In this document: piece after piece, positions 13,033 to 64,000 of the stretch
How positions within the stretch are numbered: position 1 is the stretch's first letter
Layout of the letters: every line of letters starts with the position of its first letter
NCBI GenBank assembly: GCA_048887145.1
Contig: JBHLKA010000001.1
Location: 212-64,211, forward strand
Origin: Candidatus Hodarchaeota archaeon
GTDB lineage: Archaea > Asgardarchaeota > Lokiarchaeia > Sigyniarchaeales > SOKP01
DNA: 64,000 nucleotides
Direction: 5' to 3'
Program-made: the position numbers and the translations under genes
The notes under the pieces: model-generated
The model's database searches: none
Seen by the model: the letters and a program-made list of their open reading frames with translations, nothing else
Told to the model about the DNA's origin: nothing

Positions 13033-13228
13033 ATATTAGATATAATTTATTTTCTATAGGAAAAAAATATTAACAACTACTTCAACTCAAACTTAATTCA
13101 AAAGGAATTAAATTTAATTAACAAATTTGAATAATAAATTAAGATAAAAAGTTTTGAAGAAATTTAAACTAACAACGATTTTTTCCCTTAATAAAGTTTA
13201 ATTTAGATGTCCTTTTTAAAAAATTAAT

Positions 13229-56763: not shown

Positions 56764-57198
56764 TTAAGTTTTTCGGTATTTAGTTTCAATTTTCTTTAAT
56801 ATTGGTTCCATTTCCTTAAAAGATTTACGAATTTTATGGAAGTAATACCCTAATTTATAACCTTTTTTACAATTAGTAAAAAGCATGAAATTATTTTCAG
56901 CATCACCAACAATAATAATTGTGTATCCTTTTATGCCTCTAATCACGATTTCTCTTAATTCGCCTTGACCAAGTCCGCTACTTATCTTTTCCCCTAAGGA
57001 AATTAAAGTTGCAGGACTTGCGCTATATACATCAGCAACAATATCAGCAGTTTCAGAACTAGCAATTCTCAATCCTGTTTTTGATACTAAAGCAGTTCCC
57101 TCAAGGTCTGTGGAACTCTCTAATTGTTCTAAATTACGCATTAATTCATCTAGAATTTCTTGATCGATATCAATTTCAGTACTATGTATTCTTTCCAT
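56764..57198 (-). CDS. Roadblock/LC7 domain protein, immediately downstream of selB
   Basis: LEGTALVSKTGLRIAS......DVYSASPATLISLGEKIS..LGQGELREIVIRGIKGYTIIIVGD is the Robl signature, followed by a basic C-terminal tail. It lies 27 nt after the selB stop, with a GAGGT motif 7 nt before its ATG. Confidence 0.8.
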   Translation of the reverse strand: MERIHSTEIDIDQEILDELMRNLEQLESSTDLEGTALVSKTGLRIASSETADIVADVYSASPATLISLGEKISSGLGQGELREIVIRGIKGYTIIIVGDAENNFMLFTNCKKGYKLGYYFHKIRKSFKEMEPILKKIETKYRKT

Positions 57199-57225: not shown

Positions 57226-58677
57226 TTAATTTTGAACATTTAAATCTTTTTTAGATTTCAATTTAAAACTTCTTAATTCTTTCAAAATGACTTTATCTCC
57301 CTTTCTTATAATTTTTCTAGTACTTTCAATCCCCACAATTACAGATCCTTTTGTTCCAAATGGACTAATTATTTTTGTAAAAGGAGGCTCTAATTTTCGC
57401 CCAATAATCTTTTTAGCACCTACTAAACTCTGTGCTAACCCACTACAAATAATACCTTGAGCATGTGATGGATTTTGAATGATTCCTTTTTTTATTTTAT
57501 ATTTATATAGTAATGGTGGTTCTTGATGTATCTTTATTAACTCTGCTGATCCTAAAATCCTTAAAGACGTTGGAGGCAAATCTAACCGACTTAATAACAT
57601 GGTTGTTTTTTCTTTACTAACTAGGATTCTCTCATTTAACCATAAAAAAGCTTTAAAGTTGGTTAAATCATTCTTCATATTCATTTGAATTCTTTTTCCG
57701 TCGAATTCATAATAAGGATATAAAAACCCTGCTGTAGTAAACATTCCAATTGTTACATGGAGTTGAGTACCAAAATGGGTTTCTTCTTTAAATAATTTGT
57801 TTTTATTTACTTTCACTTCAATTAAATCACAATAATCAAAAGCACGTATATTATCTGTTGCATAACACCCCCTATATATCTTGTTTGCATCCACTCCTTT
57901 AATATTGATCCCAATTCTATCACCTGCTTTTGCAAATTTTACTTCCTGATGAAAAATTTGAATCGATTTAACTCTCCCTGAAATTCCTAAAGGCATTATA
58001 TATATTTTTTGATTTAATTCTAATTTTCCCCTTAATAATGTGCCTGTGATTATTGTCCCTCTCCCTTTTATCGAAAAATGGTGATCTATGGGTATTTTGA
58101 TACTCCCCTTGAATTCTCTCTTTATATCAAGCTTTTTAATCTTTTCTAAAATCCCCTCTTTTAATTTTTCAAAACCCACTTTTTTTTTCGCAGATACAGC
58201 ATAAATCGGTATTTGTGCGCCAAAAGATGTTGATTGAAAGAAAACTCTTGTTTTTTCTATTTCTTGCTTAATATCCCCCTTAAATAGATCTATTTTGTTA
58301 AGCACAACTATGATATCTTTAATATTTAAAGCTTCTACCATTATTAAATGCTCACCAGTTTGAACTTGCGGTCCTTTATTAATGTCTATCACGATTATAG
58401 CACAATCAATTATTTCTACTGAGGAAGCACTTATTTTTATTAAATCTGCATGACCAGGACCATCAACCAATGATACTAAATAATCATCCAATACAAAACT
58501 TGTAAACCCTAAATCGATAGTTATGCCTCTTTCTTTACTTTGTGGATGAGCATCAATTCCTGCAGTCGATATTATTTCACTTAATACAGAAGCTATGGCA
58601 GTTTTTCCACAATCAATATGCCCGAACAATCCAATATGGATCGGTATTAATTTCTCAACGTCAATCATAAAAATCAC
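57226..58677 (-). CDS. selB: Selenocysteine-specific elongation factor SelB (archaeal type)
   Basis: G1 is GLFGHIDCGKT, G3 is VDGPGHADL, G4 is NKIDL. Domain II has IDHHFSIKGRGTIITGT. C-terminal archaeal-SelB motifs RLDLPPTSLRILG, GLAQSLVGAKKIIG and SPFGTKG parallel remembered Methanococcus SelB. 483 aa. Confidence 0.85.
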   Translation of the reverse strand: MIFMIDVEKLIPIHIGLFGHIDCGKTAIASVLSEIISTAGIDAHPQSKERGITIDLGFTSFVLDDYLVSLVDGPGHADLIKISASSVEIIDCAIIVIDINKGPQVQTGEHLIMVEALNIKDIIVVLNKIDLFKGDIKQEIEKTRVFFQSTSFGAQIPIYAVSAKKKVGFEKLKEGILEKIKKLDIKREFKGSIKIPIDHHFSIKGRGTIITGTLLRGKLELNQKIYIMPLGISGRVKSIQIFHQEVKFAKAGDRIGINIKGVDANKIYRGCYATDNIRAFDYCDLIEVKVNKNKLFKEETHFGTQLHVTIGMFTTAGFLYPYYEFDGKRIQMNMKNDLTNFKAFLWLNERILVSKEKTTMLLSRLDLPPTSLRILGSAELIKIHQEPPLLYKYKIKKGIIQNPSHAQGIICSGLAQSLVGAKKIIGRKLEPPFTKIISPFGTKGSVIVGIESTRKIIRKGDKVILKELRSFKLKSKKDLNVQN

Positions 58678-60288: not shown

Positions 60289-60999
60289 ATGGATCCTTTA
60301 AGTTTAGTATTTGATGAAAACTTTATTAGTACGAAATTATTTCCTTGTGATTCACCCTCAAGAATAAAACTAAAAGATGTGTTCTTTACAAGTTCAGCTG
60401 TCCTTTTCTGTATCATCCCCTATAAAGATAAACCCTATGATTTAGTATTAATTCATCGCTCAAATCGTGGAAAAAGACACCGGGGAGAAATATCATTCCC
60501 GGGGGGAAAATTCGATCCTATTAAAGATACTTCATTGGAAGACACAGCTTTAAGGGAAGCTGAAGAAGAAATTGGATTACTACGAAAAAATGTAAAAATA
60601 ATAGGTTGTTTAGATGACTTTCCGACTATGACTAAATTCGTAATTACTCCTTATGTGGCCATCATCAATAAGGATCAAAAATTAATAAAGGATGACAGAG
60701 AAGTTCAGAAGATATTAAAAATCCCAATAGATTTTTTTGTAAGTAAGAAAAATTTTAGAGAACAAGCAGTGGATATTGATGGCAATAAATTCCCTATTTT
60801 TTACTTTAATTATAAAAATGATGAGAATGAACAGATTTATACGGTTTGGGGAGCAACAGCCTACATGATATCTACATTTATCGAAACAATTTACGATATC
60901 AATATGTCAAACTTAGGTTTAAAACGATTTAAATTAGAAAAAATAAAAGATCTTAAAGAATATATCAAGTATAGAGACCAAATTACAAAAAAGTTTTAA
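60289..60999 (+). CDS. NUDIX hydrolase, CoA-pyrophosphatase-like (NUDT7/8/PCD1 type)
   Basis: Nudix box GGKFDPIKDTSLEDTALREAEEEIGL, preceded by LIHRSNRGKRHRGEISFPGG (the upstream motif typical of CoA diphosphatases). Confidence 0.7.
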   Translation: MDPLSLVFDENFISTKLFPCDSPSRIKLKDVFFTSSAVLFCIIPYKDKPYDLVLIHRSNRGKRHRGEISFPGGKFDPIKDTSLEDTALREAEEEIGLLRKNVKIIGCLDDFPTMTKFVITPYVAIINKDQKLIKDDREVQKILKIPIDFFVSKKNFREQAVDIDGNKFPIFYFNYKNDENEQIYTVWGATAYMISTFIETIYDINMSNLGLKRFKLEKIKDLKEYIKYRDQITKKF

Positions 61000-61027: not shown

Positions 61028-61705
61028 ATGGATAAAATGAATTTTATCTTTAATGAGAAATATATAGCAGATAAGTTAAAGCAATTAGATTCTCCTGAAC
61101 GAATTTCAATGCACCATGAACATTTTGTAAATTCTGCAGTTATATTCTTAATAATTCCATATCAAGAAATACCATATGATCTAGTCCTAATTCGCAGGAC
61201 TAAACAAATAAATGATAAACATTCCGGGGAAATGTCTTTTCCAGGTGGAAAATTTGATCCCAATCGAGATAAATCGTATTTAGATACAGCTTTGAGAGAA
61301 TTGAGAGAAGAATTAGGAATTCCAAGAGATAACGTAACCATCTTAGGATGTATTGATGATCACCTCACCCCGAAAGGATTCATTATAACTGCTTTCGTAG
61401 CCTGTATAAATGAAAACCAGAAAATGATTAGACAAGAAGGAGAAGTCGAAGAGATCGTGAAAATTCCAATTACATTTTTTGCGAATAAAAAGAATTTCAA
61501 AGAAAGAACTTATAAACTCAAGGAAGATTTAATTGGAGTAGGTAAATTCAAGTATAGATCTCCAAATGATAAAAAATATGTAATATTTGGAGCTACATCC
61601 CACATTATTGTAAATTTCTTGGATACTATATACAATTTAGGTCTAATGACTCCAGGTTGCAGACGAATAACATGTGAAGATATTAAAGATAGGATCATTA
61701 ATTAG
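61028..61705 (+). CDS. NUDIX hydrolase, CoA-pyrophosphatase-like (tandem paralogue)
   Basis: LIRRTKQINDKHSGEMSFPGGKFDPNRDKSYLDTALRELREELGI. It is collinear with the preceding paralogue. Confidence 0.7.
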   Translation: MDKMNFIFNEKYIADKLKQLDSPERISMHHEHFVNSAVIFLIIPYQEIPYDLVLIRRTKQINDKHSGEMSFPGGKFDPNRDKSYLDTALRELREELGIPRDNVTILGCIDDHLTPKGFIITAFVACINENQKMIRQEGEVEEIVKIPITFFANKKNFKERTYKLKEDLIGVGKFKYRSPNDKKYVIFGATSHIIVNFLDTIYNLGLMTPGCRRITCEDIKDRIIN

Positions 61706-62805: not shown

Positions 62806-62919
62806 ATTCTTTTTATTAAAATTTAAATGAATCTTAATTTAATAGAAATTATAAAGAAAATTAATCAAAAAATTCATTTTATTTCAAATACTTTTTAATT
62901 TAATAATGTTATTCAATAT

Positions 62920-63012
62920 GGCCCTTGACGGTTAGAGTGGTCTCTGACGCTGGGCTTCAAACCCAGTTATCCTGCGGAGGGATAGGGGTTCGATTCCCCT
63001 CGAGGGCCGCCA
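62920..63012 (+). tRNA. tRNA-Sec (anticodon UCA), 9/4 fold, encoded CCA
   Basis: Hand fold. The acceptor is 9 bp (GGCCCUUGA/UCGAGGGCC, one U-G). The D stem is 7 bp (GUUAGAG/CUCUGAC) with a 4-nt loop UGGU. The anticodon arm is CUGGG-CUUCAAA-CCCAG, giving UCA. A long variable arm has UAUCC(U)/(G)GGAUA. The T arm is 4 bp, GGGG-UUCGAUU-CCCC. The discriminator is G and CCA lies at 63010-63012. Confidence 0.9.
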
Positions 63013-63029
63013 ATTTTTATAAAAATCGC

Positions 63030-64000
63030 GTGATAAATTTGATTGATTTCAACAAAATTATTGATTATTTTAAAAGCACACCTATTCCTCAAAATATGCT
63101 GAATAGAGGGCAATTAGGGCTAAATGAGTTCTTAAATCCTATTAAAATTTTATTTGAGCAGAAAGCTATTCCTAAGGAACCTTGGAGTGATGAGCAAATT
63201 GAATTTTTCTTACAAGCTCTCTCGAATATGGACACAGATAAAGATTATAAGGCAGCAAGGGTAGGTGAAAGAGAAGCAAGGGTAGCATCTAAAATACATT
63301 TAAAAACTTCAGCAGGATTTTGTCATGGTGTGGGTAGAAGTGGTTTTTTAACTGCTCCTCAGCCCAAAGCTCCCGGTGGATCAATTATGTATGAAATAAC
63401 TAATTACTTAGCAAGAAACTTTCTTAGAAAATTTGGTTTACCTAATATAAAAAGCGCAATTGCTGTACCCTTATGTACAGGCATGTCTTTAGCTTTATGT
63501 ATAGGTGCTCTTAGACCAGATTGGAATAATCTAAACCTGGTAGAAAAAAGAACTGTTCTTGTTCCCCAAATTGATCATAAATCTCTCATAAAAGGACTCG
63601 ATTTAATGGGTGTAAAAAGAAAAACTATAGAAGGTAAGTTATTTGGTGATGCTGTCAGAATCCCTATTGAAGATATTAAATCAAAATTAGATAAAGATTG
63701 TTTTGCGGTAATATCAGTTACAAGTTTTTTCCCTCCCCGTGAATTTGATAATATTAAAGAGATAAGTAAATTTGCTAAGGAAAATGATTTAGTTCACATT
63801 GTAATCAATGCATATGGAGTTCAAAGTCCAGAATGGATGGAATTAATTCGTTCGGGAATTGATGCCGGAAAAATTGATGTAATAATACAGTCAACTGATA
63901 AAAATGTACTTACTCCTGTTGGTGGTGCTATTATTGCCTCACCAAATAAGGAAGTAATAATTAAAATAAGTCAAGCATATGCTGGACGCGCTTCAGCTAC
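63030..64000 (+). CDS. spcS: O-phosphoseryl-tRNA(Sec) selenium transferase SepSecS (N-terminal ~320 aa; continues beyond the window)
   Basis: My own translation, with codon starts at positions divisible by 3, gives (V)INLIDFNKIIDYF...QNMLNRGQLGLNEFL...MDTDKDYKAARVGEREARVASKIH...GFCHGVGRSGFLTAPQPKAPGGSIMY...FFPPRE...IQSTDKNVLTPVGG...YAGRASA. It follows remembered M. maripaludis SepSecS motif by motif, including the PLP-lysine context. The start is GTG 63030 or TTG 63039 (ATG 63096 is less likely). It is not in the ORF track because it is open at the edge. Confidence 0.85.
   Translation, partial: MINLIDFNKIIDYFKSTPIPQNMLNRGQLGLNEFLNPIKILFEQKAIPKEPWSDEQIEFFLQALSNMDTDKDYKAARVGEREARVASKIHLKTSAGFCHGVGRSGFLTAPQPKAPGGSIMYEITNYLARNFLRKFGLPNIKSAIAVPLCTGMSLALCIGALRPDWNNLNLVEKRTVLVPQIDHKSLIKGLDLMGVKRKTIEGKLFGDAVRIPIEDIKSKLDKDCFAVISVTSFFPPREFDNIKEISKFAKENDLVHIVINAYGVQSPEWMELIRSGIDAGKIDVIIQSTDKNVLTPVGGAIIASPNKEVIIKISQAYAGRASA

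Follow-up and report, generated by a model that had tools for sequence, protein, structure and literature searches.

A selenocysteine tRNA gene directly upstream of SepSecS in an Asgard archaeon, and the probable production of both RNAs from one transcript

In the genome of an archaeon described as Asgard (Lokiarchaeia-like), the gene for the selenocysteine tRNA (tRNA-Sec) directly precedes, on the same strand, that for O-phosphoseryl-tRNA(Sec) selenium transferase (SepSecS). A preliminary description of the locus proposed that the tRNA and the enzyme share a transcript, there being no space for a promoter between them. Does SepSecS have a promoter of its own, or is it expressed from that of its substrate tRNA? 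The question is addressed here in the window, the whole 64,000-nt stretch of DNA analysed, to which all coordinates refer (Table 1), and in a comparison set of 99 related loci, 88 of them non-redundant; as these have a common ancestry, counts exaggerate the independent support that they provide. The adjacency itself is real: the tRNA gene is followed closely by an in-frame SepSecS start, and the abutment recurs in relatives.

Table 1. Features of the tRNA-Sec/SepSecS locus and its surroundings
Feature	Position	Strand	Basis
Archaeal SelB/EFsec (aSelB); context only, outside the proposed unit	57226..58677	-	Pfam GTP_EFTU, GTP_EFTU_D2, aSelB_III
Conserved promoter-like motif CAAAAAATTCATTTTAT, with A-rich BRE-like and TATA-like parts (candidate)	62866..62882	+	Conservation across loci
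tRNA-Sec gene, intronless	62920..63012	+	ARAGORN, Rfam RF01852, MFE cloverleaf 9/7/6/6/4, covariation in 16 orthologues
26-nt spacer, proposed 5' leader of SepSecS mRNA	63013..63038	+	Sequence, fold z-score, gap lengths in relatives
T5 run directly after CCA-A, possible weak oligo-T terminator/attenuator	63014..63018	+	Sequence
Shine-Dalgarno-like GTGAT	63030..63034	+	Positional conservation, 4 nt upstream of start codon
SepSecS (O-phosphoseryl-tRNA(Sec) selenium transferase) CDS, start TTG	63039..64000	+	PF05889, TIGR03531, start alignment

The tRNA gene and the start of SepSecS

The gene called as tRNA-SeC by ARAGORN at 62920-63012 scores 62.1 bits against Rfam RF01852 (gathering score 47), and has a TCA anticodon at 62957-62959, the discriminator G73 at 63009 and a genomically encoded CCA at 63010-63012. 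Its minimum free energy (MFE) fold is a clean cloverleaf comprising a 9-bp acceptor stem, a 7-bp D stem with a 4-nt D loop, a 6-bp anticodon stem, a 6-bp variable arm and a 4-bp T stem. The RNAalifold consensus of 16 intronless orthologues has the same structure, with compensatory changes at 12 of the 32 pairs. The 9/4 fold, D stem and D loop remarked on in the preliminary description are therefore all present, but there is nothing unusual in them, as together with the long variable arm they match the canonical archaeal tRNA-Sec (PMC4989117, PMC5330540). Members of this tRNA family are charged with serine by SerRS, after which PSTK and SepSecS act in turn on the bound amino acid.

The tRNA-Sec gene is likewise intronless (length 93), with the gap behind it unchanged, in 28 other non-redundant loci. 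Some relatives instead carry a T-loop intron, which in L005, for instance (...TTTTTAAGAATAT...), places an A/T-rich block approximately 20-50 nt before the CCA. Most tRNA-Sec genes of these loci are missed by standard tRNA finders because of such introns: ARAGORN and Rfam detected one beside SepSecS in just 5 of 19. The poor conservation of the pair suggested by this figure was rejected, since direct inspection and pattern searches revealed the tRNA to be present and intron-interrupted.

The SepSecS coding sequence runs off the end of the window after 320 codons, full-length orthologues being 454-458 aa long. These 320 residues match PF05889 (E=8e-82, 275.4 bits against a cut-off of 21.1) and TIGR03531 (347.8 bits, cutoff 224.85). 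The PLP-binding lysine, which is Lys278 in the M. maripaludis enzyme (PMC2275076), is retained, the Lys of QSTDKNVLTP aligning with that of SSSDKNLLTP in the M. maripaludis sequence 2Z67.

A non-ATG start had been claimed for this gene, at either GTG 63030 or TTG 63039, and it is the second of these that alignment favours. TTG 63039 aligns with an ATG, GTG or TTG in all relatives (99 loci), and the equivalent TTG is the PGAP start of a 94%-identical orthologue, P0001 (MIDFSK..., complete at 455 aa); GTG or TTG starts are found in 33 of 68 abutting loci. The codon equivalent to GTG 63030 is destroyed in L003, L020 and L021, and the GTG itself forms the positionally fixed core of the Shine-Dalgarno-like GTGAT, so it was rejected as a start. 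An ATG further downstream, at 63096, was also rejected. The Met that it encodes, residue 20, is replaced by Ile in L015 and L018; codons 1-19 are conserved, with mostly synonymous changes (alignment A1); and both the TIGR03531 model and the M. maripaludis crystal sequence, at its N-terminus, reach further upstream than this position. The M. maripaludis enzyme is, moreover, inactive once residues 1-34 are deleted (PMC2275076). TTG 63039, inside the short gap, is accordingly the start codon, giving a predicted N-terminus of MIDFNKIIDYFK with Met decoded at the TTG. This fixes the SepSecS gene model for these Asgard genomes at a TTG, ATG or GTG 15-36 nt after the tRNA.

The SepSecS frame is indeed open back through the tRNA, to 62907, as the preliminary description noted, but this is a coincidence that is not kept in relatives, L003, L020 and L021 having an in-frame TAG at -12. 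Its effect is only to mislead gene callers: database SepSecS proteins of 482-498 aa include a translated tRNA gene or its intron, and are artefacts.

The gap and its capacity for a promoter

The sequence following the CCA is A TTTTT ATAAAAATCGC GTGAT AAAT TTG. The title of the preliminary description put the gap at 18-27 nt; counted exactly, 17 nt separate the CCA from GTG 63030 and 26 nt separate it from TTG 63039. Across 69 non-redundant loci the gap measures 15-36 nt, with modes at 26 and 33, the shortest being those of L071 (15 nt) and of L091, L019 and L059 (21-22 nt).

In M. jannaschii, the measured distance between TATA box and transcription start site (TSS) is 23 +/- 2 nt (PMC2699501). 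A TATA box lying wholly within the gap, at 63013-63020 at the earliest, would on this spacing direct initiation at around 63042 or later, beyond both GTGAT and TTG 63039; the 26-nt spacer, like the 15-36 nt of relatives, is too short to accommodate a BRE, a TATA box and 23 +/- 2 nt ahead of the start codon. By these rules, which derive from methanogens and Thermococcales rather than from Asgard archaea, a promoter in the gap cannot fit with a transcript that retains the start codon. The gap is preceded by 60 nt of G+C-rich tRNA exon, free of introns, in which no A/T run exceeds 4 nt.

The gap contains a TATA-like run, TTTTTATAAAAAT (63014-63026), as well as the T5 run, neither of which was discussed in the preliminary description. 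From the best TATA-like 8-mer, at 63016-63023, the predicted TSS falls at approximately 63045-63049. It could be envisaged that the tRNA transcript ends at the T5 run and that SepSecS is transcribed from a promoter in the gap, with a TSS at around 63042-63049 and translation from ATG 63096. The quality of the TATA-like sequence, the T5 run directly after the CCA, the apparent absence of Shine-Dalgarno sequences from many genes in the window, which may be leaderless, and the conservation of the in-frame ATG in most relatives would all agree with this. However, such a transcript would lose the conserved start codon, the GTGA motif and 19 conserved codons, and would have to be reconciled with the Ile at position 20 of L015 and L018, with the extension of TIGR03531 and the M. 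maripaludis protein upstream of the ATG, and with the requirement of the M. maripaludis enzyme for its N-terminal extension. Furthermore, conservation within the gap is confined to the GTGA motif and the start codon. It extends neither to the TATA-like sequence nor to the T5 run: the run after the CCA comprises at least five T in 12 of the 68 abutting non-redundant loci, four in 19 and three or fewer in 37. Gaps of 15-23 nt in relatives are also too small for a TATA box at a useful distance. Hence a promoter of this kind is very unlikely, although the A/T-rich, TATA-like character of the gap, and the origin of the promoter rules in methanogens and Thermococcales, leave some room for non-canonical initiation.

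An independent mRNA might alternatively begin in the gap if a cryptic promoter lay within the tRNA gene. In relatives with a T-loop intron, such as L005, the A/T-rich block is spaced roughly as a TSS close to the CCA would require. By contrast, the tRNA of the window and of 28 other non-redundant loci has no intron and yet the same gap, and its G+C-rich exon is without a TATA-like run; we know of no internal promoters in archaeal tRNA genes. A cryptic promoter of this kind is very unlikely.

Nor does the locus resemble one producing a leaderless mRNA. GTGA(T) occupies -9 to -5, and the start is TTG rather than AUG. The TATA box of such an mRNA would be centred some 26 nt ahead of 63039, over GCCAATTT at the 3' end of the tRNA, and the actual TATA-like run is approximately 7 nt too close to 63039 for a leaderless start. 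Among the non-redundant loci, 61 of the 69 that abut and 15 of the 17 that do not have a GTG at -9 or -10, compared with 1% of control 13-mers, and the motif column is invariant in alignment A2; loci of the L003 type have a weakened motif, CTGAT. GTGAT is complementary to the 3' end of 16S rRNA, taken as the universal sequence rather than the host's own, and this and its fixed position suggest a Shine-Dalgarno-like ribosome-binding motif. The fixed GTG(A/T) motif and the frequent GTG or TTG starts are both signs of translation beginning on an RNA that has a leader. Within the window, the 55 gene starts inspected are a mixture of Shine-Dalgarno-led and Shine-Dalgarno-less genes, with modest anchored enrichment (GTGAT at 11% against a background of 3%). 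No significant secondary structure was found in the 63013-63038 spacer (fold z-score -0.43), ruling out a structured leader that hides the ribosome-binding site.

A probable shared transcript and the conservation of the gene pair

Because no promoter fits between the tRNA and SepSecS, the two genes are read as sharing one transcript, as had been proposed; gap geometry and conservation support this well, and co-transcription followed by processing by RNase P and RNase Z is the best explanation and a probable one. The unit would be driven from upstream of the tRNA, where a BRE/TATA-like motif at 62866-62882, the sole exact match to AAAAWTTCWWTTWA in the window, is a candidate promoter. It ends 37 nt before the tRNA, and the M. 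jannaschii spacing of 23 +/- 2 nt (PMC2699501) predicts a TSS at approximately 62904-62908. Of 75 distinct loci, 63 carry a degenerate form of the motif in the 80 nt preceding tRNA-Sec, compared with 26% of AT-matched control windows, and its modal distance to the tRNA is 37-42 nt. As a general or Sec-specific element it shows no enrichment in the window (22 matches, 19.6 expected), and its significance therefore comes from conservation between loci. A scan of the window for sigma-70 promoters and hairpin terminators, irrelevant for an archaeon, gave no enrichment, and a profile of TATA positions across all loci, built on crude gene calls, was too noisy to be of use.

The primary transcript would consist of a short 5' leader, tRNA-Sec, the 26-nt spacer and the SepSecS mRNA. 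RNase P would remove the 5' leader, and archaeal RNase Z would probably cut between 63012 and 63013, directly behind the encoded CCA, so that the tRNA would be complete at its 3' end and the mRNA would retain 26 nt of leader; ribosomes guided by GTGAT would then translate SepSecS from TTG 63039. Archaeal RNase Z is known to cleave directly after an encoded CCA and to accept intron-containing pre-tRNAs (PMC7479834), and in Haloferax volcanii RNase P and tRNase Z excise RNAs from between tRNA-like elements in vivo (PMC4946936). The mRNA was earlier called nearly leaderless, which does not hold, given the leader of 26 nt and its Shine-Dalgarno-like motif that would remain after cleavage. An oligo-T stretch being an archaeal intrinsic terminator signal, the T5 run may partially terminate the tRNA transcript, and read-through could be low; by halting some polymerases, it might combine with the weak TTG to give far more tRNA than enzyme. 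The further proposal that the arrangement couples the stoichiometry of the two was hence too strong, as co-transcription amounts to co-regulation, and a weak start codon, a possible attenuator and the unlike stabilities of the RNAs argue against a 1:1 ratio.

Two Logan short contigs, both starting exactly 63 nt before SepSecS, were considered as transcript ends and rejected in favour of an assembly break at the conserved tRNA, 63 nt being about the gap length plus what we take to be one assembler k-mer. A link between the encoded CCA and abutment through co-evolution was also discarded: the CCA is encoded in a Helarchaeota tRNA-Sec that does not neighbour a SepSecS start.

A stricter version of the processing model, in which the SepSecS mRNA of Lokiarchaeales has no source other than the tRNA-Sec precursor, being its 3' product after processing, with possible feedback by the precursor, is improbable. 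Were it true, the enzyme could be made only if its substrate tRNA had folded correctly and been matured at the 5' end, 5' maturation of the pre-tRNA being a requirement of archaeal RNase Z, and the tRNA moiety of unprocessed precursor could bind SepSecS, PSTK or aSelB, thereby feeding back on processing or translation of the message.

The relatives reinforce the view of the two genes as a unit. Abutment with a gap of 15-36 nt is present in 69 of 84 evaluable non-redundant loci, behind at least three different upstream neighbours (an M29 peptidase, a NUDIX or an Fe-S-type protein), and thus persists, amid changing flanking synteny, in approximately 80% of loci, which span 66-94% protein identity. 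A neighbour-joining (NJ) tree indicates that it is the ancestral state of the main clade, within which the tRNA has separated from SepSecS on several independent occasions. Loci in which 65 nt to 1.9 kb lie between the two have, as expected, an AT-rich, promoter-like block 35-75 nt before SepSecS.

It is possible, if not the favoured view, that co-transcription is a neutral by-product of genome compaction, SepSecS having lost, or having always lacked, a promoter of its own and being read from whatever precedes it, with no selected coupling of tRNA and enzyme levels. The repeated departures of the tRNA are in keeping with this, as are its abutment on the 3' end of an unrelated gene in L073, L074, L075 and L087, the position of SepSecS behind aSelB in other Asgard lineages, and the weak start codon and possible attenuator, which speak against stoichiometric coupling. 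The persistence of abutment in some 80% of loci despite changing synteny, on the other hand, suggests a degree of selective retention, in which function and inertia are not separable.

On the shared-transcript reading, these data indicate that the last enzyme of selenocysteine synthesis in Lokiarchaeales owes its expression to the promoter of the tRNA that is its substrate, and that tRNA processing sets the 5' end of the mRNA. This would offer a straightforward and testable means of co-regulating tRNA-Sec and SepSecS, and a naturally occurring archaeal case of an mRNA produced by tRNA punctuation.

Comparison with known systems

Within the Asgard archaea, the order tRNA-Sec then SepSecS is specific to this clade, and can serve as an evolutionary marker, other lineages having aSelB followed by SepSecS. 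In the window aSelB lies on the other strand, 4.2 kb upstream of tRNA-Sec, and so forms no operon with SepSecS, matching the layout reported for Lokiarchaeum (PMC4989117). The aSelB-SepSecS operons of Helarchaeota, Freyarchaeia and Atabeyarchaeia are similar in that SepSecS is a promoter-less downstream cistron behind a gene of the Sec machinery. They differ in that the upstream partner is a protein gene, which overlaps SepSecS or is separated from it by 37 nt or 88 nt (37-88 nt spacers), and in that tRNA-Sec is elsewhere (on the opposite strand in L102), whereas in the window the tRNA takes the upstream position.

A close parallel in gene order is pylT-pylS, treated as one unit, pylTS, in the pylTSBCD clusters of Methanosarcina and other pyrrolysine-using archaea (PMC9499178, PMC12626013). 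In both, a tRNA dedicated to a non-standard amino acid immediately precedes, on the same strand, the gene for the enzyme that acts on that tRNA. By contrast with PylS, an aminoacyl-tRNA synthetase, SepSecS is a PLP-dependent converter of a tRNA-bound amino acid; the tRNA family also differs, and the gap here, of 15-36 nt, contains a conserved ribosome-binding motif. Similarly, in the Escherichia coli thrU-tyrU-glyT-thrT-tufB operon, tRNAs upstream of the EF-Tu mRNA share its transcript and are separated from it by tRNA-processing nucleases. That system is bacterial, relying on a sigma-70 promoter and on RNase E and RNase P, and the protein that it encodes does not use its tRNAs as chemical substrates, while here a single tRNA is the enzyme's direct substrate and the 3' cut is proposed to be made by archaeal RNase Z behind an encoded CCA. 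Bacterial sel clusters that include selC, such as selDABC of Eubacterium acidaminophilum, also group the tRNA-Sec gene with those for amino-acid conversion and delivery; they use SelA rather than SepSecS, the tRNA gene usually follows the protein genes, and we know of no evidence that it supplies a promoter.

The ends of neighbouring RNAs are likewise defined by tRNA processing in the tRNA punctuation of mitochondria. The same principle operates in the H. volcanii constructs, in which cleavage at tRNA-like elements delimits the RNA transcribed together with them (PMC4946936). The former is organelle-wide and the latter an engineered crRNA cassette, whereas the present case concerns a single natural archaeal gene pair: the example is new, and the mechanism is not new in kind.

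The tRNA-Sec gene and the SepSecS start codon

[quoted passage not shown] The minimum free energy fold of the tRNA is a clean cloverleaf, comprised of a 9 bp acceptor stem, 7 bp D stem, 4 nt D loop, 6 bp anticodon stem, 6 bp variable arm, 4 bp T stem and G73; the consensus structure of 16 intronless orthologues is identical, with compensatory changes at 12 of 32 pairs. The combination of a 9/4 fold, 7 bp D stem and 4 nt D loop, pointed out originally, is ordinary, as canonical archaeal tRNA-Sec has the same features, along with G73 (PMC4989117, PMC5330540).

Related loci were drawn from genomes (19) and metagenomes (80), giving 88 non-redundant sequences with the window. The nearest, with SepSecS identities of 66-94%, belong to Asgard MAGs labelled Promethearchaeota or Lokiarchaeia-like. 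Either GTG 63030 or TTG 63039, respectively 17 and 26 nt past the CCA and both in the SepSecS frame, had been suggested as the start; of these, the comparison identifies TTG 63039 as the start codon. Its position is occupied by ATG, GTG or TTG in all aligned loci, and it corresponds to the PGAP-annotated start of the 94%-identical orthologue, P0001. The GTG is destroyed by a 1 nt deletion in L003, L020 and L021, leaving an in-frame TAG at -12, so only the TTG equivalent can initiate there. ATG 63096 (Met20) was rejected: it is replaced by Ile in L015 and L018, codons 1-19 are retained with mainly synonymous changes, and both the TIGR03531 model and the M. maripaludis crystal sequence start further upstream. 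The M. maripaludis enzyme needs its N-terminal extension to be active (PMC2275076).

The frame is indeed open back through the tRNA, to 62907, as first described, although this arises by chance and misleads gene models; several database SepSecS proteins whose N-termini run on across tRNA-Sec or its intron (e.g. MSWPLSVGVVFDAGLQTQLSCGGIAVRF...) are consequently gene-calling artefacts.

Features of the tRNA-Sec/SepSecS region and of related loci (L, loci; P, database proteins)
Feature	Position	Strand	Remark
tRNA-SeC, anticodon TCA	62920-63012	+	ARAGORN; intronless
Encoded CCA of tRNA-Sec	63010-63012	+	sequence
Conserved motif CAAAAAATTCATTTTAT	62866-62882		upstream of tRNA-Sec; sole exact match in 64 kb
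Archaeal SelB (aSelB)	57226-58677	opposite to tRNA-Sec	
Two tandem NUDIX hydrolase paralogues	60289-60999, 61028-61705		between aSelB and tRNA-Sec
Roadblock/LC7-domain protein	56764-57198	minus	directly downstream of aSelB, same strand, 27 nt away
Intron-bearing tRNA-Sec	L003:1285-1440, L005:3823-3974, L008:3853-3977, L015:3740-3862, L037:440-589, L093:2352-2474		examples
tRNA-Sec close behind another gene	L073:2221-2324, L074:2072-2175, L075:1277-1412, L087:2259-2361		reciprocal layout
Overextended SepSecS models	L001:3887-5368		P0039, 482 aa; P0050, 495 aa; P0105, 498 aa

Conservation and neighbourhood of the abutment

In nearly all evaluable loci SepSecS is preceded, on its own strand, by tRNA-Sec. 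The gap between CCA and start is 15-36 nt in 69 non-redundant loci (most often 26 or 33 nt; shortest in L071, at 15 nt), 65-700 nt in 12 and approximately 1.1-1.9 kb in three; two have no tRNA within the upstream sequence present, and in two of the 88 this sequence is too short for evaluation. In a neighbour-joining tree the larger gaps fall in one basal clade and, within the main clade, at several tips that are independent of each other, a distribution indicating that abutment is ancestral in the main clade. Elsewhere, SepSecS follows aSelB, overlapping it or separated by 37-88 nt, in Helarchaeota, Freyarchaeum, Atabeyarchaeia and one 'Lokiarchaeota' MAG; L102 has its tRNA-Sec on the opposite strand, and in Methanococcus and Methanocaldococcus an Rfam search found none in the 3 kb around SepSecS. 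Among the lineages compared, the unit of tRNA-Sec followed by SepSecS is therefore specific to the window's clade. SepSecS appears to be a downstream cistron across Asgard archaea generally. The abutment is not mentioned in the main texts of the relevant papers examined.

Which gene lies upstream of tRNA-Sec differs from locus to locus: the window has one for an M29 peptidase, L004 and L005 have a NUDIX gene, and L019, L053 and L059 have one for an Fe-S-type protein. Four loci (L073, L074, L075 and L087) have a reciprocal layout, with tRNA-Sec 7-8 nt past the stop codon of a gene encoding approximately 410 aa (C-terminus ...CPQQI...SEVFE), leaving no space for the tRNA's own promoter, and SepSecS 139-1088 nt further downstream behind its own A/T-rich block. 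The same gene is 73-94 nt from tRNA-Sec in L019, L053 and L059, where the tRNA abuts SepSecS instead. Placement of tRNA-Sec within transcription units of mRNAs seems to be routine in this clade. The position of the window's aSelB, on the strand opposite tRNA-Sec, agrees with the layout reported for Lokiarchaeum, whose SecS was reported on a separate contig (PMC4989117). A NUDIX gene also separates SepSecS from SelD in another Asgard lineage (L104:4435-5067), and the association of such genes with selenocysteine genes may be recurrent.

An encoded CCA is unusual, being present in just 5% of 20 archaeal tRNA-Sec genes (PMC5330540). It is found in the window and every related locus with a visible 3' end, as well as in one Helarchaeota tRNA-Sec (L102:5139-5141, minus strand); it is absent from the window's tRNA-Gln (13033-13035, compared with 63010-63012) and two other tRNAs of relatives, the comparison also listing L006:6711-6713 and L001:6198-6200. 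Encoding of the CCA is independent of abutment. The clade's tRNA-Sec genes contain zero, one or two introns at three positions: the D arm (~30-33 nt, after gene position ~17), the canonical anticodon-loop site (~27 nt, as in L037) and the T loop (~30 nt), such that gene lengths cluster at 93, ~123-126 and ~150-158 nt. Only a 31 nt T-arm intron is reported in the relevant literature examined. As most copies are intron-bearing, and most such copies escape ARAGORN and Rfam, these detected the tRNA adjoining SepSecS in only five of the initial 19 loci. In L031, what looks like a second, partial copy of the tRNA-Sec 5' end (2349-2381; GGCCCTTGATGGTCCAAAT...) lies ~33 nt upstream of the real one and may be left over from an intron or a rearrangement.

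Candidate promoter and ribosome-binding signals

That the gap has no room for a separate promoter, as originally claimed, is borne out by the 23 +/- 2 nt TATA-to-TSS spacing of M. jannaschii (PMC2699501). A TATA box wholly inside the gap predicts a TSS at ~63042 or later, past GTGAT and the start codon, and the top TATA-like 8-mer (63016-63023) one at 63045-63049; relatives with 15-23 nt gaps likewise lack the space. Upstream of the gap, the exon of the tRNA is G+C-rich and its A/T runs reach at most 4 nt. Of 75 distinct regions upstream of tRNA-Sec, 63 contain a degenerate form of the conserved motif, as do 26% of AT-matched controls. Its distance from the tRNA is mostly 37-42 nt, which predicts a TSS ~12-16 nt ahead of the tRNA. 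Where the tRNA is distant, an A/T-rich, promoter-like block lies 35-75 nt before SepSecS.

The CCA is followed by A-TTTTT-ATAAAAATCGC-GTGAT-AAAT-TTG. Among non-redundant loci, 61 of the 69 that abut and 15 of the 17 that do not have a GTG at position -9 or -10 relative to the start; its frequency is 1% in control 13-mers taken from the A/T-rich stretch preceding the tRNA. The consensus, (G)GTGA(T), can be read as a Shine-Dalgarno element, given its complementarity to the conserved 16S 3' end, ...GAUCACCUCCU. GTGAT-like motifs precede a minority of window genes, often within operons. Shine-Dalgarno sequences are described as rare in Lokiarchaea in a review (PMC12993045), so that the fixed motif before SepSecS stands out more; it also fits a transcript on which another element precedes SepSecS. 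Folding detected no significant structure in the SepSecS leader (z = -0.43), and tRNA-Sec folds independently inside the modelled precursor. At least five T residues directly follow the CCA in only 12 of 68 abutting loci, hence there is no conserved terminator between the genes; partial termination at the window's own T5 run is possible.

Proposed expression and known analogues

On this anatomy, one promoter would give a transcript of leader, tRNA-Sec, 26 nt spacer and SepSecS mRNA; RNase P would mature the tRNA at its 5' end, cleavage by archaeal RNase Z would fall between 63012 and 63013, and translation would initiate at TTG 63039 with GTGAT. Archaeal RNase Z cleaves right past an encoded CCA, needs a 5'-matured pre-tRNA and accepts intron-containing precursors (PMC7479834), and in H. 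volcanii RNAs between tRNA-like elements are freed in vivo through RNase P and tRNase Z (PMC4946936). The arrangement is of an already known kind: its closest analogue is pylT-pylS, and precedents for the mechanism exist in the tRNA-tufB operon and in tRNA punctuation.
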